From Girardia tigrina (lineage: Eukaryota), in NCBI GenBank assembly GCA_001938485.1, contig MQRK01252507.1:141021-191877 (forward strand): DNA of 50,857 nt, written 5' to 3'. Positions 1,173 through 47,917 of the stretch are shown here, piece after piece (position 1 is the first letter of the stretch; each line of letters begins with the position of its first letter). The translations under genes were made by a program, and so were the position numbers. Under the pieces are notes generated by a model that saw only the letters and a program-made list of their open reading frames with translations, was not told the origin of the DNA and made no database searches.

Positions 1173-1519
1173 GAATCACGTATTTTGGGAATAAATCACT
1201 TAAATGAAATCGTGATTATAAATTATTTTAATTTAATTTAATTATCGATTAAAAAGTGCATAAAATAAAAATATTAAATTATTTGGCTATTATTCACTAT
1301 TGGTACATTGAACCCACTATTACCACTGAACTTTTGTACTTTAATTGTGCAATGAAACATAGGAGACAACACTTTAAAAAATATTTAGATAATAAAGAGG
1401 CACTTGGAAGTTTCAAATATCCCTCAATATACTCGAATCATGAACAATTGGAATATTTACAAAAGATAATGGGCATTAATAAAACTAAATACATTTTCTT
1501 GATGATATACATCATTACC

Positions 1520-1664
1520 TGTGCGATGAGATGATAATCGAAAATAATAATCTCGTTAATTCGATTTTTATATTTTGTTTAAATATTTCGGTCTTTGTGA
1601 AAAACGTGTGTTTTCTATTTAATATAATTTAGGAACGTGTTATTCATTGTCATTCTCTACAACA
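1520..1664 (+). repeat. 5' LTR (145 bp)
   Basis: TGTGCGATGAG...CTCTACAACA, repeated at 3202. Confidence 0.95.
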
Positions 1665-1677
1665 AGCTATCCGGACA

Positions 1678-1840
1678 ATGTCGAACATGAAATTGATCCT
1701 TGATTGCCTCGAGAAATTCAAAGGGAATCAAACGTGGGAACTATGGAAGAAGCAATTCGTTTTATTGACGTCGATGCAGCAGATAAAGGATGTATTTGTA
1801 TTGATGCCGTTCGTGTTGAGTGGATCGGCTCTCAATATAT
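1678..1840 (+). pseudogene. gag: gag N-terminal fragment
   Basis: MSNMKLILDCLEKFKGNQTWELWKKQF...MPFVLSGSALNIY, a retrotransposon gag pattern, fused by deletion to RNase H. Confidence 0.75.
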
Positions 1841-3201
1841 ACATGGTTGAGGAAAAAAGGCGATTCAAGGCATATAAATATCGCTGAGCTGGAGGCGGTC
1901 GTGAAAGGGCTTAATTTGTGCGCGAAATGGGGAATGACGGACATCACGATAAAGTGTGACAATAAATCAGTAGTCTCCTGGGTGAATGACGTGATCACAA
2001 GTAAATCTAGGTTGAATACGAGTGCCTTTTCAGAATTGCTTATCAGACGGCGGTTATCAATCATTAAGGCAATTTGTGATGATTTTAACATAATGATAAA
2101 GATAAAGTTCGTAGCGAGCAGTCTGAATAAAGCGGATGAGATGACGAGGATATCGAAGGCATTAACTAAAAACGTATGCTGCGTGGCCACGACAAGTGAA
2201 ATTGAGAGATTAGATAACCTTCATAAGAAATGCCATTTGGGAGCGAAATGAATGAAATTTCTCTGTGGGATTGAAAACATTCAAGTAACGGATAAGGATA
2301 TCACAAACATGATTTCAAAATGTCAAAAATGCCAGTCAATTGATCCCGCACCGGTAAAATGGAATCACGGTTGCGTGGCCGTAAGGGAGAATCGGTATAG
2401 ATTGGCAATCGATGTGACAAAATACAACGACAGGAAGTATTTAAGCTTAATCGATTGTGGACCATTCAGATTTGCAATTTGGAAAGAAATTGGTGACGAA
2501 AGTTCATACTCCATCTCCACGGTAATAGATTCTATATTTTTTGAACGCGGAACCCCCAGCGAATTGTTAGTAGACAATTACACCACTTTTTATTCAAAGG
2601 AGTTTGTTGAGCTTTGCAATCGATGGGGAGTAGAGTTAATTTATCAAGCGAGCAATCGGCCTGGTGGGAACGGGATCGTTGAAAGAAACCATAGGACGAT
2701 CAAAAGAATTGCGGCGAGATCAAAAATTACAATTGCAGAAATGTATGGTGGTACAACAATACGCCATCGGAGAACAAAGAACCACCGAGTTGGATGATAT
2801 ACAGTTATAAATGTATGAAACCCGTAAGCCAAAAAAAGTGACAATGAGATAGAGGGCAGTACAAAGGGTACAATGTATTGTGATTATCAATTAGTCTGGG
2901 TGAAACCAATGGGAAGCACAAGGTGCACGCAACAATGGTTAAAGGGTCAAGTATTGAAAAAATTATCATACTGTAAATATTTAGTGGATTGTAATGGGTC
3001 GAGGTTCCCTCGGCATGTTGCTGATTTACGGCCGAGAAGAGTCGAATGCGAGCACGTGAAGAACACAGCTTTGTCTTGGGACACAGAGTCAGAAGTCGAT
3101 GAACGAGCGACTACTCATATGAAGCGTGTGCGAAGAAGGCCTAAATACTTGGATGACTACGTCATAGATGGAGATTCGTGTACGGACGAATCTGGTGGGG
3201 A
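1841..3201 (+). pseudogene. pol: pol remnant: RNase H C-half plus integrase
   Basis: HINIAELEAV...KCDNKSV...NKADEMTR (RNase H); H-x3-H...C-x2-C; LAIDVT, LLVDN and NGIVERNHRTIK (DDE core). Stops and frameshifts present. Confidence 0.9.
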
Positions 3202-3336
3202 TGTGCGATGAGATGATAATCGAAAATAATAATCTCGTTAATTCGATTTTTATATTTTGTTTAAATATGTGAAAAACGTGTGTTTTCTATTTAATACAAT
3301 TTAGGAACGTGTTATTCATTGTCATTCTCTACAACA
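3202..3336 (+). repeat. 3' LTR (135 bp)
   Basis: Matches the 5' LTR except for a 10-bp deletion and one substitution noticed by eye. Confidence 0.95.
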
Positions 3337-4627
3337 TTACCTTTTTTACAATGAAAATATTATCGATTCCCTCTAGCGAACTTTAATTTTAAGAATCTTA
3401 GAATTCTTATGTCCACATCTTTATTCATTTTTATATCACAGATAACCATTAAAATAATTATTCAATTCTCCATCCGAAATCTCAAGAATGACTCAAGAAA
3501 ATAGGGAAAGAACACAAGACATGACTTAAAACAAAAACGTTATTATAAAAGTATTATAAAAGTCATAAAATTTTGGTTAATTTAAATTTTTAATATTTTA
3601 GTTAATTTCCGTGGATAAATGATTAAAGCAAATTGTGTAGATACAGAAATAATCATATATCGCATATATTTAAGGTATATCCCATAAAGTAGTTGTGAAT
3701 TCGACCAAAAAGACAAGAATTTCTTTTTTTTCATTCAACGATAAAATTTTATATCGAATTCCTCATCATTGTCCATTGTTTCCATTTAGACTAAAATTTG
3801 ATACTTCAAGTAAATGCATATTGACAAGGTCTTTTATTTCTTTAAGATATTTACAGATGGAGATTTTATAATCGTGTATTTTCTGGTACCCCGACAAATG
3901 CGCTAAAAGGGGATTGTTTAATATTTTTGAAATTTTTTTATTATTGATTCGTTAATGCGAAAATAATTTTGAAATATAAATTTAATATAATGGACCAAAA
4001 GATAAAAAACACAAATTTATTATCAATTTAACAATTATCCAAAAGACGCAATCTAAATTCCACTAAATATACGACTTATAATTTGCTCTGTCAAGTCCTG
4101 ATCTCAACGGAAATGATCCACCAATGCATAATTGGAAGGATGATGACAAGCAATAGATGACATTATGTCAGCTCTCATTACCGCGCATAGTTAGGAAGAA
4201 ACACAAGATTGAAAAGATCCGTATGGAAATCTTGGACATTGGACTCCCACATCCCATGGATATTATCGCGAGTAAAAGGCTTACTTTTCACAGTAAGACG
4301 GAAACTTCAGAGGAGTACGAGACAATCAAACGAATCTGAAAGAGAGAAATACAAATGGGGAAAAAGATCAATGGAAGTAAGTAATATTTTTCAACACTAT
4401 TTATTGTTATATTATACATTACGCAATTTCATCTCTCAAAGAAGTCACAATGTCACGCTTTTAACAAAACATCAGTGGCAAACAGTTAAGTATTCCCAAC
4501 TTCATATCTATTTTCTTTATAATATCTGAAATCAGCGAAACAAATCACACAACCCCAAATGCACCAGATAAATTAAAAAAACGTCAAACCATTTAATTTT
4601 AAAAATATCAATTTAATATAAAAAAAA

Positions 4628-11560: not shown

Positions 11561-12404
11561 NNNNNNNNNNNNNNNNNNNNNNNNNNNNNNNNNNNNNNNN
11601 NNNNNNNNNNNNNNNNNNNNNNNNNNNNNNNNNNNNNNNNNNNNNNNNNNNNNNNNNNNNNNNNNNNNNNNNNNNNNNNNNNNNNNNNNNNNNNNNNNNN
11701 NNNNNNNNNNNNNNNNNNNNNNNNNNNNNNNNNNNNNNNNNNNNNNNNNNNNNNNNNNNNNNNNNNNNNNNNNNNNNNNNNNNNNNNNNNNNNNNNNNNN
11801 NNNNNNNNNNNNNNNNNNNNNNNNNNNNNNNNNNNNNNNNNNNNNNNNNNNNNNNNNNNNNNNNNNNNNNNNNNNNNNNNNNNNNNNNNNNNNNNNNNNN
11901 NNNNNNNNNNNNNNNNNNNNNNNNNNNNNNNNNNNNNNNNNNNNNNNNNNNNNNNNNNNNNNNNNNNNNNNNNNNNNNNNNNNNNNNNNNNNNNNNNNNN
12001 NNNNNNNNNNNNNNNNNNNNNNNNNNNNNNNNNNNNNNNNNNNNNNNNNNNNNNNNNNNNNNNNNNNNNNNNNNNNNNNNNNNNNNNNNNNNNNNNNNNN
12101 NNNNNNNNNNNNNNNNNNNNNNNNNNNNNNNNNNNNNNNNNNNNNNNNNNNNNNNNNNNNNNNNNNNNNNNNNNNNNNNNNNNNNNNNNNNNNNNNNNNN
12201 NNNNNNNNNNNNNNNNNNNNNNNNNNNNNNNNNNNNNNNNNNNNNNNNNNNNNNNNNNNNNNNNNNNNNNNNNNNNNNNNNNNNNNNNNNNNNNNNNNNN
12301 NNNNNNNNNNNNNNNNNNNNNNNNNNNNNNNNNNNNNNNNNNNNNNNNNNNNNNNNNNNNNNNNNNNNNNNNNNNNNNNNNNNNNNNNNNNNNNNNNNNN
12401 NNNN
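11561..12404. other. assembly gap
   Basis: Run of N. Confidence 1.
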
Positions 12405-22298: not shown

Positions 22299-24695
22299 TT
22301 ATCGTCTTTCAGAGCCGCCTCTCAATTCTTCAACAATGGTTATTTGGGAATTTCGAATATTCATTTTTAGTGTAACTTCTTGTAAAATCAAACAAAATAT
22401 TTTATCTTGAAAGTTTACATCTTTATTAATTACAATTGTCACAACAACATTATTGATAGCCATGGTTTTATCAATATCAGAAGTATCGAAACAAATAATT
22501 GGGTATAAACTTCTCCAATCTCTTAATGATAATAATGGTGCTTTATCTTGAAATCCGCGACAAACTTGAACATAAGAATTATATGTCATAATAATCGTTA
22601 TTATTTTTATTGATTACTGTAAAATTTGCTATTTTCACGTTTGCCAAAATAGCAAATCTTACATACAAATAAATGAAAGAGAAATAACTTTCTAACTACT
22701 CAATTAACTAACACAGCAATTAATAAAAAAAAAATAAATAAATAAATAAATATAACCCGTTCGTTGAGGAAAATTTATTCAGGATTACAAACATTAGTGT
22801 CCAAAAAAAACACGGTAAGTAATTATGTATATCAAAATTAATTCATCAATTTTATTATTGATTTTTTATTTTCAGTAAATTATGTAAATTATAAGACGTT
22901 TCGTCAAAAACAATGTCTTTATAATCGTTTATGTAGGCATTATTAAACCAAAGTGCGTATTCCGGTTATTTTTCCGATTCATTGACTCTGTTAAAATTCT
23001 TTAAGTTAATTTTTAATTTGGATAGAGCTCGAACAATGATCGTAGTTGAAATTTCGAAATTGTCAGCATAAAATATTATATACATATTTAATTGAAAACT
23101 TTTAAAAATATCAAATTTGGATTCATTTGATAAAATCATTTGATTATAAAGAGATTCCTTATTTCTGTAGTTCGCATATCTCACACAAATATGATTGATT
23201 ATTTCTGCAATGAGCCTTCAATGTTTATCTATCGGATCCAACCACACGAAAAATATCGATTATCTGAATATTGAAATTCGTCCTCAGTTTCTAAATAATG
23301 TCTTTACCAAAAATTAACATAGTCCCGCAATTCACATTTAAAGCAGTTAGATAACTTTTCAGTTTTTCTTCGATATCTTCCAACAATAAAAATATTTCAA
23401 ACATAACAACAAATGAGCACCAACACACACATTTGACCAAATACAAAAGGTACTAAAAAAATATACAGACTCAAAAATAAAAAGAAAGTCTAAATCAAAG
23501 ATCGTTCTGAGAGAAGACTTGAAATCCGCGACAAACTTGAACATAAGAATTATATGTCATAATAATCGTTATTATTTTTATTGATTACCATTGGTTGAAT
23601 GGGATAATATTCATTATTCAATTTCAATTGAATAGTGAAATCTCCTGTGCCGTCCATGGTAAATAATGAATTATTCGATTTATATTCCGAAGCTGATTTC
23701 TTGAATCCAAAAATAATATATCTTGGTAAATATTCTAAATAGGAAACATTCCATGAGAAAATTTTTTGATTAGATAACAAGTATTCCATGGTCATTCTGC
23801 GCAAGAAATCAACATAAATCGGTTTATCTTTAAGACTTAATCTTTCAACTAATTCACCATATGATTCGGCATTCAATTCTAATTGATCCATTACCAGCTC
23901 TAAAGAATTGATTTGAATTGATCCTTTTGTATTATTATCTCCAATATTTTGTAAAAAGAAAATATTTGCGTTATCAACTTTGCGAATAGCTGTGAATTCA
24001 ATGAAAACGTTATACAAAATTCGGTTATAATTCTGTAAAAATCTAAATAAATGTTTAAGTGAGAAGCAGCCTTTGAATTTATTTTTCCCATGATATTGTA
24101 ATTTTCGAACAAAATAACCCGAATTAGCATATTTCATTTCACCTTCAACTCCCGCTACTGCATCTGCTGCCACTACTGCCGGATTTGCATTTGGATTTGC
24201 TACTACTGCCGCTTTTGGTACTACTGGAAAAGCTTTTATTTGTAGATCTTTATGATCGGGAATAAATCCAGTTATTTCACCGCATGGGACATAATTCTGA
24301 TCTTTTGAGACATATCAGATGCGATTCCGGGATTATTGATCGTTTCAACAACATGAGCTCATAATTTTAATGACATTGATGAGAATAATTTCGGGAAAAA
24401 ATTCGTTTCAAGAATTGGTCTTTTTGTTACAGCTTCATCTAAATCTTTTAACTCGATTTCATAAACTAATTTAGCGTTACAAATATCTATTGGATCTGGT
24501 TGTTTGCGATAATTGGAAAACAATAGGACCATTTTTATTTTTGTTTTCAGTTGATCCGGAAGTTGGACATATTCTTATTAGGTTTGTTTTCTTTAAAACA
24601 TGAGAAAATTCCTTATTTGAATCTAAATTCAAGATTCCTTGGGGTACGAGACCTGAGACTAATTGACTAACTGGTTTTTCGAAAGTTGTTTCCAT
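22299..24695 (-). pseudogene. major capsid protein (double jelly-roll), interrupted by a 900-bp insertion and frameshifts
   Basis: Colinear Polinton MCP motifs: NKNGPIVFQL, FFPKLFSSMSLKL..VETINNPG, NSGYFVRK..FSLKHLFRFLQNYNRILY, PRYIIFGFK, LNNEYYP, then after the insert PLLS..YPIICFDTS. Confidence 0.85.
22618..23517 (-). mobile_element. 900-bp insertion (probably a decayed Penelope-like fragment) flanked by a 71-bp direct repeat
   Basis: 22547-22617 equals 23518-23588. The minus strand shows a weak GIY-YIG-like remnant near 23350 and a GAAACGTC hammerhead-like remnant near 22895-22925. Confidence 0.7.
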
Positions 24696-24705
24696 TTTTA
24701 AATTC

Positions 24706-26192
24706 CTAATTTTTTTGTGAAGGTATCTTTGATTTTTGTAAATCTTGTTCATAATAACGACCAAATATTATAGCGCCTGATAAATCTCGTAATTTATAAG
24801 TCACTGGGTATTCATAGTCCAGAACTTTGGCGATTTCATATAATTCTCTTGTCCATTTTACCTCGTAACCTTTGATATAATTTCTCTTTTTTCGCTCTGC
24901 ATCCGTTAATAATGATTTGGCAATGAAAATTCTTACCTTATCACCGATTTTGAATTTTGATTTCAAATTTTTATCCTTATCATAAGCTTTTTCGGGAATT
25001 TTTCTCACTGGAAAATCGGGTATCTTATTAAACATAACATCATTCGGAGTCTGTTTTGTAGAGCTATGAATTTTATTATTATATTCATTAATTATTATAT
25101 CCAATTCTTTCTGATTAATCTTTTTTCTGATTTTTTACGGGTAAATAAGCGATATATTTGGGATTTTATTGTTTTATTAAATCTTTCAATAAAAACAGGT
25201 TTCTCTTTTACATAGTATAATTTTATATTATTTTTCTCACAAAATCGTTTGAAATCTCCAGTTTGGAACTCAGCTGCGCGATCAGTCCAGAGATAATTTG
25301 GAATTACATTTCCAGCTTCATGAATAATTTCGCGAAAAGCTTTTAATGTTGCTGCAGATGATTTATTCGGTAATAATTTATAAAATCCGTAAAGAGAATA
25401 AAGATCAATAACAGTTAGAATTGGAAACGGGACTGAAGTTGATTTAGGATTTTTAGGTATTTTTAAATTTGTAATTTTCTCAACTATTTCATCTTGTTGA
25501 TTTTCAATATATTCCCTGGTTAAAAATATTAAATCAGCAGACCAGATATGATTCGGCTGATAAACATTTATTTTGAGAAAAGTTTTATTTTTATTATGTG
25601 GAAAATGTAATTTTCTAACTAATTGATCTTCTTGGGATGTTAAATTTTTTTCATGAATTTTACTTTTATAATGTTTATCTTTTAACTTGATATTATAACT
25701 TTTTACACAAGTTTCACAGTAAAATTCGAGAACCTTCGGTTTTCCTTTTTCATCAATATTACCACCAAATACAATTTTACTTTTCATTATGAAATTAATT
25801 AGAAATCTTTCAAATTTTTGTCTTAATTTCAGATCTTGGAGTTGATTTATATCGTGAATTAAATTTATATCAGCCAAGTGTCTATCACGAATATCATCGC
25901 TCCGATATGCTAAATTATGACGATAACACGCTTCATCGAGGCCATCAACAGGCTCATTTTCTTCTCCTAAAGGTTTATCGGTATTGGGATCTAATCGAAT
26001 ATCCAATCTCGTTAATGGCCCACAATAATTTTTACCCGGTAAATGTAATTCACTGTATTTTGTTTTCATAAAACTAGGAATATATTTTGCATAATTAGCG
26101 AGATTTTGTTGTATGTCAGAACCAATTTTGATTTTATTCATTTTTTGATTAAATTTCATCAAAAACCTTCGGTAAATAATAAAAAATCTCAA
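24706..26192 (-). pseudogene. PLA2 / zinc finger / rve integrase fusion (one frameshift near 25100)
   Basis: LHLPGKNYCGP...PVDGLDEACYRHNLAY (parvovirus-type PLA2); CETC..HYKSKIH (zinc finger); IWSADL, LWTDRAAEF and IERFNKTIK (DDE); C-terminus YNNKIHSS..GDKVRI..KGY..WT.ELY..TYKL.DL.G...YYEQDLQK, typical of Polinton integrase. Confidence 0.93.
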
Positions 26193-26307
26193 CTATATCC
26201 TGTTGAATTTTATTCTAATCACGAATACAAAAGAGATAAAATGTATGTTTTTTATTGAAATATTAAATAAACCCTTCTAATTTCAAAACCATTTGTAAGC
26301 AAGCATT

Positions 26308-27304
26308 TTATTTGTGATATACATTTTTCCATTTTAATAAAATTTCCCTTCGGGTAGCACCTTTGGTGCTAAGTGTATCTTTCTCTTCATCTTCACTACA
26401 TTCTTCTATTACTATTTCTTCTTCTTTGAATATATTTTTATAAATTTTTTTCTGGGTACGGTCATAATAGATATAATTATGCTTCTCATCATTCCAGTGA
26501 TCCATTATTTTCTGTTTATATAATTCGGTACAACGCTCATTAAACATGAATAAATCGTTGAATATATAAGATTTATCCCGTTTTCCCAGTTCGAAAAAGA
26601 TGAAACCATTACTATTATTCCGGATAGAATGTTTATCCAATCCATAAAAAGTTTGGGAAATATAAATAGTATTACAATTATTATGTCTTCCTCTGGTAAA
26701 GTAAGATTTCATTATTTTCTGATCAGAAAGGTTAACAACATCATCGAAAATGATAAGATTTTTAGCGTCTTTGGGTAACGAATCACAGGGAACAATCTGA
26801 TTTGGATCACTTGAAAATAGAACGGAAATCGCTTTTTCAGGGTCTCGGATTAAGTATTTTAATTGGTTTTTAGTGCTAAAATTATTAGTTATATATCTCT
26901 TATACGCATAAACCAGATATTCCGGAGGAGGAACATATTTCTTATCAGAAATGTTTCCTAATTCCTCTTTTATCATGTCAAAAAGCATTTCTTGCTTATC
27001 AAAAATATCGAGTATTCCGGCTTTTGATAATGCTGATCCGTCCTCAAATCGAAATCCATTTGCAATGACTTTCAATGACTTGATCAATTGTTGTGGAATA
27101 AAAAATTAGATTATTGAAATCTAAGAAATTATCTTCCAGCAACATTTTGGTTAATAAAACATTTTTTCCACAACCTGATTCACCAATAATTAAAATTCGA
27201 AAATTTTTCGGGAATAATTTATTTTCGAATTTGGATTCGTACATGCGTAAAATATTTAATTTTCCAAAATTCTTTTTGGAAACCTTTGGAAAATCTTTAG
27301 TCAT
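26308..27304 (-). pseudogene. A32/FtsK-like DNA packaging ATPase (frameshift near 27070)
   Basis: Walker A ILIIGESGCGKN, Walker B LIIFDDV, arginine finger/sensor RGRHNNCNTIYISQ, and IRNN. Confidence 0.93.
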
Positions 27305-39367: not shown

Positions 39368-41620
39368 GTAGGGTGGGTCACATGTTAATAAATTTTGAGT
39401 TCAAGAAAGGAAACATGGTTAAAAAGTTGTATTTTGGTATAGAAACATCGAATCAAACCATTTTACTTAGATTTATGGCATTTACTGCTCCCAACATTTC
39501 TCCGAAAATGCAGTTCAACATAAGTGTGAAAACAATGTAATTTGGCTAGTGTCGGAATGTGTTTTGCGCCTTTGTCCATATTTAGATGTAGCTTTCTTAA
39601 GAGCTTATAAGTATATTATTTACTTTCTTGGGCTGAGATAGTATATTGTGTCCTCATCCCGCATTGAAATATATCCTGACAACGTCAGTGATTAGGAAGG
39701 GCCAAATTTGAATTATCCTTTTCAAAGACAAAAATCAACTTTCGAAATTATTTTTTATTAAAAACATCCAGCCAAANGTTTAAAAATGTATTAGCGAGGG
39801 CATAAAAAGAAGTCACATGAAATCAGCTTTGCTTTGCACCTTGGGCAATTCTTTCCTTGATTTTTTACACAGTAGTACCATACCATGTCTGGACTTGTGA
39901 CCAAACACTTTGCAACTGGCAGAAGAAACATCTTTGATGGATCTTTCAATGGCTTGAGAATGACAGGGAAATTGTTCTAATGTAATTTTCTTATTCATCT
40001 TCAATTCATGATCCAATATATGAGATAAAAGAGCGTCAAATTACATTTTGTCCAGTCAATCATGTCAACATATGATGTAGCAGACGACTGAAGAAAGACA
40101 GTATTCTTGTCCATAGTGCGAATCACTTCGGAAGGGAGAAAATTTTGTCTNNNNNNNNNNNNNNNNNNNNNNNNNNNNNNNNNNNNNNNNNNNNNNNNNN
40201 NNNNNNNNNNNNNNNNNNNNNNNNNNNNNNNNNNNNNNNNNNNNNNNNNNNNNNNNNNNNNNNNNNNNNNNNNNNNNNNNNNNNNNNNNNNNNNNNNNNN
40301 NNNNNNNNNNNNNNNNNNNNNNNNNNNNNNNNNNNNNNNNNNNNNNNNNNNNNNNNNNNNNNNNNNNNNNNNNNNNNNNNNNNNNNNNNNNNNNNNNNNN
40401 NNNNNNNNNNNNNNNNNNNNNNNNNNNNNNNNNNNNNNNNNNNNNNNNNNNNNNNNNNNNNNNNNNNNNNNNNNNNNNNNNNNNNNNNNNNNNNNNNNNN
40501 NNNNNNNNNNNNNNNNNNNNNNNNNNNNNNNNNNNNNNNNNNNNNNNNNNNNNNNNNNNNNNNNNNNNNNNNNNNNNNNNNNNNNNNNNNNNNNNNNNNN
40601 NNNNNNNNNNNNNNNNNNNNNNNNNNNNNNNNNNNNNNNNNNNNNNNNNNNNNNNNNNNNNNNNNNNNNNNNNNNNNNNNNNNNNNNNNNNNNNNNNNNN
40701 NNNNNNNNNNNNNNNNNNNNNNNNNNNNNNNNNNNNNNNNNNNNNNNNNNNNNNNNNNNNNNNNNNNNNNNNNNNNNNNNNNNNNNNNNNNNNNNNNNNN
40801 NNNNNNNNNNNNNNNNNNNNNNNNNNNNNNNNNNNNNNNNNNNNNNNNNNNNNNNNNNNNNNNNNNNNNNNNNNNNNNNNNNNNNNNNNNNNNNNNNNNN
40901 NNNNNNNNNNNNNNNNNNNNNNNNNNNNNNNNNNNNNNNNNNNNNNNNNNNNNNNNNNNNNNNNNTGCGTGCTAACGATGATTGACATGATTTCTTTGCC
41001 AATATCCACAGCTTTACTACTTTGAAGTACAACATGATCGATATATGTTTCCCCTGGAAAGGCGACAATCACATAATGCTCCTCTTTTAGGATCCTTCTA
41101 TGAAGTAAGGTGGAATCTTGTTTCCCGTCGAAACCGAGGCAAATCAAGTTTTTCGCTTCTGCTGAATGCTGTTCAATTTCTCTCTCCCTCCAGTACTTTT
41201 TCTGACGCCATAATTTTGCGGGATCGATGATTGTTTGAGAGGATAACAGTTCCATATCTTTCAGAAAAGCGTTTACTAGCAAACACGTGTCTCTGTTGCT
41301 CACACCACATCTGTCAACAGCTTTACTTAATTCAGGATAATGTCTTCTATTNNNNNNNNNNNNNNNNNNNNNNNNNNNNNNNNNNNNNNNNNNNNNNNNN
41401 NNNNNNNNNNNNNNACGCGTTAGCTTGGACTTGTGAATAGAGCATGTCAAAAATGGTCTTTCTGCAAGCGTGTGACTGCTTGCAGGATGAATTTACAATG
41501 GCACGTGTGCGAGCATTTTTACTGGGATAGTAGTAATACATACAAACAAAAGTTGGGACCTGTAAACCCTTTTAAACAGCAGTCTTTTGCACGGATATTT
41601 CATTTTCTAGCATAAGCACA
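39368..41620 (-). mobile_element. hAT-superfamily (hATm-like) transposon spanning gaps
   Basis: LGFDGKQDST..EEHY and C-terminal FPCHSQAIERSIKDVSSAS..SRKELPK transposase motifs; TAGGGTG and TAGG terminus-like sequences at 39368 and 39693. Subfamily and boundaries uncertain. Confidence 0.6.
40151..40965. other. assembly gap
   Basis: Run of N; a further short gap lies at 41352-41414. Confidence 1.
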
Positions 41621-43038: not shown

Positions 43039-44715
43039 ATGAGTAAATCATCCAAAGTATGGCTGCATGCCAAGCGCATAGGTGACAATAGTGCTAAGTG
43101 CATGCTTTGTGATCTTATTCTGTCAGCAAAAGGCGGCAACACATTTACTCTACGTCACCATCTCATTGGATCGCAATAGATTCATTTGAATGAGACGGGG
43201 AAAAGTATGACTTCAAACATAACTGAGTTCATGGTAGCAGCAAGACCGAAGTTAACCAAATCCAGAGCTTTAAATATTGATAAAAAAGTTGCCAAATTTA
43301 TTGCACGTGATGCAAGGCCCGTCAGCATTGTAGAACGCAAAGGATTCATTGATCTTTTGAAGTTTGTGGAGCCCGACTATAAACTGAAGTCTCGAATAAC
43401 AGTAACTGCACTAGTTAAGACGGAGTTTGAACACCAAAGAAACATACTTAAAACAAGATTGGAGAAGGCATGTTATATTGCCTTCACAACAGATATGTGG
43501 ACATCGATTCAAAATTTAGCATATATGTGCGTAACTGTACATTGGTTGACCAATGATTGGGAACTGCAATCGGCCATTTTGCAGACCAGAGAATTTACTG
43601 AGCGCCATACGGGTGAAAATATAAACGTGCGCTTAAAAGGATGTGCTGAGAAGTGGGGAATACCAACTAACAGAATAGCAGCAACAGTACATGATAACGG
43701 CTTGAATGTCAACTTGGCAATCTCTATTTTGGATGACTGGCCGGACCAGCGCTGTTTCGTACATACACTCCAGCTGGCCATTTGCCTTAAAATTCAGACA
43801 ATTGCCAAGATGCTTGGTGCTGCTAGACAATTGGCTGCCCACTTCAAAAAAAGCACAGTAGCAGTAGAGGCATTGCGAAGCAAACAAACTGTTCTTAAGA
43901 CCAACAATGACAGTGAAGACATTCTTGAGGTAGTCATCGATTGGTCAACAAGATGGAACTCCTCTCTTGACATGCTTGAGCGCTTGGTGAAACTTCGTTG
44001 GACCATTGGAGCTGTGCTGTCGGATCGAAATGTTACAGAGCGCAGAAATACTGCGACATTGGAAATGTCAGATGAAAACTGGTTGCTTTCACAGGCTGTG
44101 ATAATCATTGTAAAACTATTTAAGATGTTGACAATCATATCTTCCGGCCAGAAATATCCGTCATTATCAGCAGTCTATCCACAGTTATACATTATTTGGA
44201 GGCATATACAAGTTGTACAACCAGATGAGTGCACCGCTGTGCAGCAATGTCGATCTGCAATTACAGTTATTACAATTATAACAGCGCTACTATCCTGCTG
44301 GATACAACAAATTGAATGCGGCAAAGGCTTCTGTCTTTCATCCACGATATAAAGTATTGAAATTCTTTGCAGAGCCTTTTCGTGATGAAACATACGCGGA
44401 AATTATATATGAACTGGAAACGATTGTCGTTGCAAATATTGACGACGAACCGAGATTGTAGAACCTGAACCCGTGAAAGCTCTGAATAACCATGTAAACG
44501 TTTTTGATGATCTTGTTATGTTGTGTTCAGCAGATGATCGATTTGTAGGTTTGGATGAGTTAACATCCTACTTGTCCGAGACACCATTGACGGTGAAAGC
44601 TGATATTCTTCAATATTGGAATGATAAGAGCAAGCGTTATCCAAAACTAGCTTTTCTGGCTCAAAAATATTTGTACATACCAGCGACATCTGTACCCTCG
44701 GAATGTGCATTTTTT
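43039..44715 (+). pseudogene. hAT (ZBED1/Ac-like) transposase
   Basis: BED finger (SKVWLH..AKCMLC..GGNT..LRHHL), FTTDMWTS, VHDNG, CFVHTLQL, TRWNS and the dimerisation motif YLYIPATSVPSE; stops and frameshifts present. Confidence 0.93.
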
Positions 44716-45152
44716 GTTGTCTGTTTTATTTTTTATTGCCTATATATTGATTTGCTTAAAATAAAACATACAATAAAGCAACATGAATTTATTAACAAGA
44801 AATGTTGGGACATAAAAATAGCGTTCTATTTTTTATCGTCTATAAATAATAATCAAAACAACAACAAAAACAATGAATTGTTTCAAAAAAGTAAATTATA
44901 GATAGATTGTAGTTTATTAAAATTTTATAAAGTGAATATTATTATTTTTTTTAATTTTTGACCACAGCATTATGATTGATGTGATATGATTGAAGTTTTG
45001 ATCTGTAGTTAGTGATGAAAGTCATTTTCTTTGTACATCGCTTTTAACTTCAATTAACAAAAAACATTTGAAAAAACATACTTTATTTTGAAAAATTTTC
45101 CGAAATTGCGTACATTTAATAATAAAAAGTTTGGACGACGGGTACCCGGGAG

Positions 45153-45813: not shown

Positions 45814-46720
45814 ATGGTGAAGAAAAGATTGAATATTTTAGACATGTACGAGTCGAAATTCGAGAACAAATTGTTCCCGAAAAATTTCCGCCTACTGATC
45901 GTTGGGGAATCGGAATGCGGAAAAATGTCCTGCTTTCGAAAATATTGCTGGAATATGGTTTTTTGGATTTCAATATTTATCTTTTATTTCAATTTTTTAT
46001 TCGACTACCATAGACGAGCCGGAATTGAATGTGTTCGCAAACGGTTTCCGTTTCGAAGACGGATGCTCGTTGACCAAGTTTGCTATTCGTGATATATTTG
46101 ACAAGGAGAAAATGCTGTTGGAAATGATCGAAAAAGAATTGGGAAACAGTAATGATAAAGATTACGTCCCGCCACCGGAATATCTGGTATACTCTTACAA
46201 ACGATATATCAATAATAAATTGAATCTGGATCACAAACGGTATTTGATTCGAGATCCTGAAAAAGTGATTTCCGTCCTGTTTTCATCACATCCCAACCAG
46301 ATCGTCGCATGTGATTCGTTGCCTAAAGACGCGAAAAATTTGATTATTTCCGATGACGTAGTCAATTTGTCAGATCAGAAAATAATGAAGTCGTATTTCA
46401 CTCGCGGACGTCATAAAAACTGTAATACCATATACATTTCACAAATGTTTTACGGTTTGGATAAACATTCGATAAGGAATAACTCAAATGGATTCATTTT
46501 TTCGAGCTCGGTAAACGAGACAAATCTTACATATTCAGTGACATATTTACTATTGGCGATACAGAACGTTATAAATCGGAAATCATTCGACATTGGCAGC
46601 GAAAAAAATACAATTATATTTATTATGAAAAAAAAAAATTTATAAAAATTTATTTACAGAAGAATAAATAGTAATAGAAGATCAAGATAGTGTTTTAAGT
46701 CAAGACAAAGATGAAAGTGA
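45814..46720 (+). pseudogene. A32/FtsK-like packaging ATPase, copy 2
   Basis: LLIVGESECGK, LIISDDV and RGRHKNCNTIYISQ; long stretches match copy 1 at protein level; frameshifted. Confidence 0.92.
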
Positions 46721-46861
46721 TTGAAAAGAAATATTTATGCTATCGAAGAAAAAAATAAAAAAATTTTCATATTTTATCTTATCAGATATTCATGACTAAG
46801 GAATTAACTTGATATTGATTAGATTTTTTATTATTTGGAAAAAAGATAATTTAGCTAAAAA

Positions 46862-47917
46862 ATGGTTGAACAAGTCAATTTTTTTTCAACAAGCAAAAAG
46901 AACGGTGGAGATATTCAAGCGAATTTGGCGCAATACAGTCGATATATTCCTGGTTTCGTGAAAACGAAATACGGAGAATTGCATTTGCCAGGGAAAATTT
47001 ATTGCGGACCACTGACAAGATTGGATATCCGATTGGATCCCGATACTGATCAACCAATTGATCAACCAAGGATGAAAATCGTCCAGTTGCTTGTTATCGT
47101 CATGATTTGGCATACAGATCCAATGATATTCGCGATCGGCATTTGGCAGATATCAATCTGATTCACGATATCAATCAGCTTGAAGATCTATCACTTCGGA
47201 ATAAATTTGAAAAATTTTTGATAAATACCGTTATGAAGGGGAAAATTGCTTTTGGAATAAAAAGAACAAGAAGAAAAATATGATAAAATCTTTAATAAAA
47301 TAAAAAGAAAAAAATAAAAGATAAAAATTCTGATGAACAACAATTGGCCTTGGAGCTTCATCGTGATCATCGGGACTTAAGACAATTCATCCCGATCCAA
47401 GCGAAAAATTTAAACGAAATTTGGTCTGCAGATTTTACATTAATCGATGTCCCATAGGGAGCGAAAAAATGCCATTAAAGCAACAACAATTCCAAAAAAG
47501 AAGAAAAACAAGAAAAATAAAAAGAAAAATAAAGAAGATGATAATGATGAAGAAAGAATTGTATATAAATATTATATTTTAACAGTATTCTCGTTATGCA
47601 TTTTCCAAATTTTTGGTTGGTAAATCTGCAAAAATCGTAGCAGAAGCTTTCAAAGAAATTTTTATTGAAATAGGAGATAAAATGATTGAATTGAAAAAAT
47701 ACGATATTCAAACTCCAAAACTTTTATGGGTAGATGAGGGAAAAGAATTTACTGGTAAAGATTTTAACAAATTTTTTCTCAAAGAATACAATATGAAAAC
47801 TATCATGTGAAAGAGAAATCGGTTTTCATCGAACGATTCAATCGAACATTGTAATCGAAAATATATAAATTGTTTACGGAAAAAGGAGAAAAACTTATTG
47901 ATGAAAAAGAATTAGAA
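46862..47917 (+). pseudogene. PLA2-integrase fusion, copy 2 (broken, truncated)
   Basis: ELHLPGKIYCGPLTRLDIRL, CYRHDLAY, LALELH..EIWSADF, LWVDEGKEF and IERFNRT. Confidence 0.9.

Follow-up and report, generated by a model that had tools for sequence, protein, structure and literature searches.

Twelve bases beside the 5' LTR of a Girardia tigrina retrotransposon clade complement the 5' ends of host tRNAs and likely bind a short 5' tRNA primer

Minus-strand DNA synthesis of an LTR retrotransposon begins at a 3'-OH paired beside the 5' LTR, and one element of Girardia tigrina raises the question of what supplies that 3'-OH when the bases adjoining the LTR complement the beginning of a tRNA. The element occupies positions 1520 to 3336 of the window, the whole 50,857-nucleotide stretch of DNA analyzed here (assembly GCA_001938485.1, contig MQRK01252507.1, positions 141,021 to 191,877 of the forward strand). 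As judged from sequence comparison, the 12 bases 3' of the 5' LTR likely bind, as primer for minus-strand DNA synthesis, a 12-nt fragment from the 5' end of a tRNA, and comparative support for the feature as real and clade-wide is strong. The parts of the element, in window coordinates, are as follows.

1515–1519, plus strand: 5' target-site duplication TTACC, the same letters as at 3337–3341
1520–1664, plus strand: 5' LTR, 145 nt, TG...CA, aligned to the 3' LTR
1665–1676, plus strand: putative primer-binding site AGCTATCCGGAC, pairing at 11/12 positions with nt 1–12 of tRNA-Lys(UUU), gapless to the LTR
1678–1846, plus strand: 5' stub of gag, ended by an internal deletion, from alignment to copy L035
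1842–2248, plus strand: RNase H remnant of PF13456 RVT_3 type (E = 3.6e-9), from translation
2252–3201, plus strand: integrase and C terminus of pol, with stops and a frameshift (rve, E = 6e-5, under the curated cut-off)
3187–3201, plus strand: polypurine-tract (PPT) region CGAATCTGGTGGGGA, adjoining the 3' LTR
3202–3336, plus strand: 3' LTR, 135 nt, differing from the 5' LTR by one 10-nt gap and one substitution
3337–3341, plus strand: 3' target-site duplication TTACC, matching the 5' duplication

The end of the 5' LTR is fixed, as the original prediction held, by alignment of 1520–1664 with 3202–3336 and by TTACC on both sides, and identical LTR boundaries with target-site duplications (TSDs) of 5 bp occur in other copies of the window family. 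The gag ATG had been placed at 1678; its position stands, but what it opens is a stub and not a whole gag. Relative to copy L035, approximately 2.07 kb is gone from position 1846 (most of gag, PR, RT, DUF7047, and the start of RNase H), such that the internally deleted window copy is without PR and RT and retains, besides the gag stub, a portion of RNase H and a disrupted integrase. Undeleted copies measure approximately 3.9 kb, are flanked by 5-bp TSDs, and encode gag (CCHC), PR, RT (YVDD), RNase H, and integrase. The hallmarks of an LTR retrotransposon are thus present, namely TG...CA direct repeats with a TSD, a PPT whose region CGAATCTGGTGGGGA is conserved among copies as well as sister Lys families, and, in undeleted copies and relatives, the gag, PR, RT, RNase H, and DDE integrase domains. 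Elsewhere in the window, a Polinton-like remnant (23553–27105, minus strand; double jelly-roll, PLA2-like domain, and integrase core) has a related inverted copy at approximately 45825–47255, and a hAT transposase remnant lies at 43180–44898 (plus strand). Open reading frames listed in all frames at the N runs (11561–12404, 40151–40965, and 41352–41414) are artifacts.

A search of the G. tigrina genome (1.43 Gb) with a query containing the site returned 1195 candidates, of which 40 were scored and 30 fetched, the last including the window copy and some assembly duplicates. Directly 3' of the 5' LTR, 19/30 loci carry AGCTATCCGGGC exactly (12/12), the exact complement of nt 1–12 of host tRNA-Lys(UUU), and the remainder depart from it by one mismatch (nine loci), two mismatches (one locus), or an indel (one locus). 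None of the 30 begins its post-LTR sequence with the TGG that would pair with a tRNA CCA end, and undeleted copies also lack it, so the missing TGG is no peculiarity of the window copy. Host tRNA-Lys(TTT) genes begin GCCCGGATAGCT (Rfam scores of 65.8–74.1 bits). The host therefore possesses a tRNA with the start that the original prediction had called for, and its 11/12 match is accounted for by the window copy being a one-base variant of a family site that pairs at 12/12; the G at position 1675 is found in contigs of all four public runs. Among near-exact copies, 8 of 11 mismatches fall at site positions 11–12, farthest from the priming end, in a set of loci that includes assembly duplicates. 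A comparison of divergence between the primer-binding site and the LTRs was set aside as biased by the choice of loci.

Circularity was avoided by searching with a distant pol protein and fixing element ends by the LTR pair and TSD alone (134 loci supplied, pol in 127, LTR pair and TSD in 27). Own-genome elements found by pol alone and with fixed ends carry an exact complement of a tRNA start at offset 0 in 11/13 cases (eight Lys, three Phe); of the other two, one has an N gap and one has a boundary called 9 nt before a Phe motif. The eight elements starting AGCTATCCGGGC share 48–92% pol identity with the window family, and the LTRs of most are unrelated to it. The three of Phe type start AGCTATCGCGGC, the complement of the tRNA-Phe(GAA) start. 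No intact tRNA-Phe gene was found in the assembly, and the host Phe start therefore rests on four 5' pieces starting GCCGCGATAGCTCAG and two 3' pieces, which carry the GAA arm as well as the acceptor stem's complementary strand and overlap the 5' piece by 14 nt. In the assembly, the tRNA-Phe(GAA) loci (L129–L132 and L215–L216) are broken pieces only.

A third family starts AGCTATCATCGG, the complement of the intron-bearing host tRNA-Tyr(GUA) (CCGATGATAGCT). The Tyr-type pattern CAAGCTATCATCGG has 80 genome matches as against 4 for the control; a second LTR was found at 11/20 loci, with the motif at offset 0 in 7 of these 11 and exact TSDs in 4. The label "Asn" given by ARAGORN to L137 was rejected, as this gene has a short intron and the anticodon GUA, and relatives without the intron receive the label Tyr. 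Lys, Phe, and Tyr sites each complement the start of a different host tRNA, and the anticipated covariation with acceptor-stem 5' strands is thus observed as a change of site with tRNA identity. Shuffled 12-mers match any of 25 host tRNA starts (a partial tRNA set, to which the Phe start was added by hand) exactly 1 (Lys), 2, and 0 times per 200,000, placing the tRNA-start matches of the post-LTR 12-mers far above controls.

Genome-wide, ACAAGCTANNNNGGC has 3825 matches, as compared to 458 for the reversed pattern. By hand tally, the first 100 matches listed comprise 59 Lys, 20 Phe, 19 one letter off, and 2 other; Lys(CUU)- or Thr-type sites number 0 among these 100, though both tRNAs occur in the genome. 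Met-type sites in the same genome number 6, with 21 for the control. The choice of tRNA is narrow, and the Lys, Phe, and Tyr tRNAs used have A7-U8-A9-G10-C11-U12 in common.

A gag start was present in 30/46 metagenome loci (27 clusters), and in 29 of these 30 the 12-mer lies within 350 nt upstream of gag, while the motif AGCTATNNNNG[GC] has 0 occurrences in reversed and reverse-complemented control windows. Seven variants were seen (TTCGGC, 11 loci; CGCGGC, 6; CACGGC, 6; CCCGGC, 3; and CTAGGC, CATCGG, and CCGGGC, 1 each). The CAC, CCC, and CTA variants complement real tRNA starts, most often Phe, as judged from prokaryotic tRNAs, and the commonest variant, AGCTATTTCGGC (11 loci), equals the end of a Drosophila tRNA-Phe GAA 5' probe in the available text of PMC7038984. 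Both LTRs end at the motif in L083 and L090 only. The sole gag-start metagenome locus lacking the motif, L105, has no clear CA end either; upstream of its gag stands CGCTACCGAGGC, with no CA before it. The complement of CGCTACCGAGGC is one letter off the start of the own-genome elongator tRNA-Met, which has G at position 12, and the L105 site may accordingly be of Met type, covarying even at position 12.

Site labels changed 15 times on a quick tree of 53 rows (unrooted, without reference RTs, and with seven rows lacking site data counted as one group), as compared to a shuffled mean of 35.3. Tyr-type sites fall on two branches with starred nodes between them, which points to two origins of the Tyr type. 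Named protein relatives occur in nematodes and crustaceans (Trichuris, Trichinella, Petrolisthes, Macrobrachium, and Amphibalanus), and a longer sister group is present in the sponge Sycon; all are known here from proteins alone. No relatives were found in viral contigs, and the ESM Atlas yielded generic RT/RNase H clusters only.

The pairing is limited by tRNA nt 1 at one end and by the LTR edge at the other, where the site adjoins the terminal CA of the LTR, and it does not pass U12, since pairing of C13 would require G at the point where that CA stands. Continuation into the pre-tRNA leader was rejected, as it would need T after the site and A is present there in 8/10 Lys families. At the position facing G6 of tRNA-Lys, the site carries its Watson-Crick partner C, whereas the tRNA's own 3' strand carries U; the site is thus a complement of the tRNA 5' strand and no copy of the 3' strand. 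The 12-bp duplex with the tRNA has an energy of −23.5 kcal/mol (−18.3 for the window variant), as compared to −10.6 for the tRNA acceptor stem, and cofolding with the whole tRNA, modeled as unmodified RNA without tertiary structure, was favorable by 5.8–13.1 kcal/mol in 6/6 elements. Self-priming was rejected, since duplexes of the site with the LTR of the element itself are weak, the best being −2.2 to −9.1 kcal/mol in six elements; the earlier observation that the LTR holds no complement, raised against Tf1-type self-priming, is in agreement. An anticodon-arm match was likewise rejected, since past tRNA position 3 even the closest match within the partial host tRNA set has 4–5 mismatches.

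In the mechanism we propose, element RNA would invade the tRNA, probably aided by the CCHC Gag protein, to form the 12-bp duplex, displacing the 3' acceptor strand and opening the D stem. Since the last paired tRNA base is internal, a cut or trimming after U12 would be needed; cleavage at the duplex edge, separating U12 from C13, would place a 3'-OH at the LTR boundary, and ordinary LTR replication with the PPT and integrase would follow. The likeliest cutter would be the element's own RNase H, acting as in Tf1 but in trans, a choice favored because Tf1 cuts at a duplex edge and the acidic residues of RNase H are retained in the clade. No Tf1-like accessory pairing was found in the elements analyzed, which weakens a Tf1-like cutting step, and on our analysis the scales stand about level between the element RNase H and a host nuclease or the trimming of a longer 5' fragment. 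The fuller reading, in which an animal-wide clade of compact LTR elements (RT-DUF7047-RNase H-integrase) relies on a primer of a fourth kind and its own RNase H cuts host tRNA after U12, is tentative, and we place it a little short of an even call. Comparison does support the suggestion that the family may prime with a 12-nt 5' tRNA fragment; the fragment, its use in priming, and the cutter are what we infer from it.

Several other explanations bear on the same observations. The primer might be made by the host, either as a pre-existing 5' tRNA fragment or as a longer one trimmed to the duplex edge, which would be a variant of 5'-fragment priming compatible with its main claim and which we consider possible though somewhat doubtful. 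The lack of Tf1-like accessory pairing is consistent with it, and the absence of Lys(CUU)-type sites among the first 100 listed, together with Met-type counts under control, could reflect the fragments that the host makes. However, 5' tRNA fragments usually exceed 12 nt, and a host cut would have to recur at one position in three tRNAs and in distant hosts, always at the LTR edge, a constancy that a duplex-measuring enzyme of the element explains simply. A precedent for host processing is nonetheless available in yeast, as the Ty5 primer end is described, in the accessible part of PMC5371799, as a product of host RNase P. More distant from 5'-fragment priming is the idea that the 12-mer docks an uncut tRNA, serving packaging, dimerization, or translational control of gag, while priming proceeds from a second, 3'-end site or by self-priming. 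The gag ATG is often only a few nucleotides from the site, Ty1 and Ty3 make extra contacts with other tRNA arms (as described in the same part of PMC5371799), and in L053 a second tRNA contact lay above all 200 shuffles. That contact was, however, the only one of 15 tests (U5, after the site, and before the PPT) to exceed shuffles and was not repeated in the other 14, and U5 pairing with the D arm, a post hoc idea from the cofolds, gave p = 0.23 over 41 of 43 elements. Moreover, exact complementarity to a tRNA 3' end anywhere in 19 elements extends to at most 3–7 nt, none of it near the LTR end, the LTR self-duplexes are weak, and the site occupies the sole place from which minus-strand synthesis can be initiated at the edge of the LTR. 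Docking of an uncut tRNA is accordingly improbable.

Lastly, the 12-mer could be functionless, either left over from a tRNA piece once captured or a matter of chance. Common descent does account for its presence in copies of one family, and the window copy carries both a mutation and a deletion. Across families with approximately 35–70% pol identity and unrelated LTRs, however, the 12-mer is kept while the bases after it vary, and the site switches among real tRNA starts of a kind that shuffled 12-mers match 0–2 times per 200,000. Covariation refutes this explanation in the main, and we regard what is left of it as very improbable indeed.

Priming by a 5' tRNA fragment, if true, would add a fourth primer type to whole tRNA, half tRNA, and self-primer, in a clade that is abundant (thousands of sites in the G. 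tigrina genome). Searches testing tRNA 3' ends only, as in the accessible part of PMC13524379, would score such elements as lacking a primer site. Very short 5' tRNA fragments would gain a concrete predicted job, a new tRNA cleavage at U12/C13 is predicted, and the arrangement suggests that competition with these elements, or their silencing, could come from 5' tRNA fragments instead of 3' ones. Were the element's own RNase H the cutter, the system would link self-priming of the Tf1 type with tRNA priming, and the element itself would generate tRNA fragments.

The PR-RT-RH-IN domain order is that of Ty3/gypsy (Metaviridae). PF17917 RT_RNaseH, typical of Ty3/gypsy, was detected in 0/13 members at E ≤ 0.01, and DUF7047 is found between RT and RNase H in 13/13. 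At E ≤ 0.1, the RNase H matched RVT_3 in 24/24, RNase_H in 22/24, and RT_RNaseH in 3/24. Matches in PDB were weak and mixed, and a search of PDB sequences with the RNase H profile gave nothing useful. The RNase H motifs have what we take to be a DIRS-like look, yet LTRs and a DDE integrase are present. Placement in Ty3/gypsy is therefore tentative, with the gypsy domain order on one side and an atypical RNase H and DUF7047 on the other.

A survey of plant LTR retrotransposons distinguishes three primer types, namely whole tRNA, half tRNA, and self-primer (accessible part of PMC6317226), and half-tRNA priming is, in the portions of PMC6317226 and PMC10886601 available, confined to Ty1/copia lineages. 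Half-tRNA systems (Drosophila copia and yeast Ty5; Osser, Bryco, and Bianca of plants; Copia and Helenus of fungi) resemble the one proposed here in using a 3'-truncated tRNA as primer and in lacking a TGG start, as far as the available text of PMC6317226, PMC10886601, and PMC5371799 describes them. In contrast, the half-tRNA site pairs with the anticodon arm, whereas the site here pairs with nt 1–12, from the acceptor 5' strand into the D stem, and half-tRNA elements are Ty1/copia, with IN before RT, whereas the order here is PR-RT-RH-IN. The length and geometry of the predicted primer are reminiscent of Tf1/sushi elements (Tf1, Tf2, and Tj1), Tf1 using an 11-nt 5'-terminal RNA primer released by an RNase H cut at the duplex end (in the accessible parts of PMC7175516 and PMC4600332); the Tf1 primer is, however, the 5' end of its own transcript, while the partner here is a host tRNA in trans, without a complement in the LTR. 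With canonical Ty3/gypsy and retroviral 3'-end priming, including the bipartite site of Ty3, the elements share a host tRNA partner that varies by lineage, TG...CA LTRs, a 5-bp TSD, a PPT, and the order gag-PR-RT-RH-IN, but they have no TGG or 3'-end complement. A literature search, with Repbase, subscription journals, and supplements outside its coverage, found no LTR element whose site pairs with a tRNA 5' end, and searching with the 12-mers themselves led to no retrotransposon paper. On these comparisons of sequence, the proposed truncated-tRNA priming from the tRNA 5' end would be distinct from 3'-end, anticodon-arm, and self matches alike and may be new.
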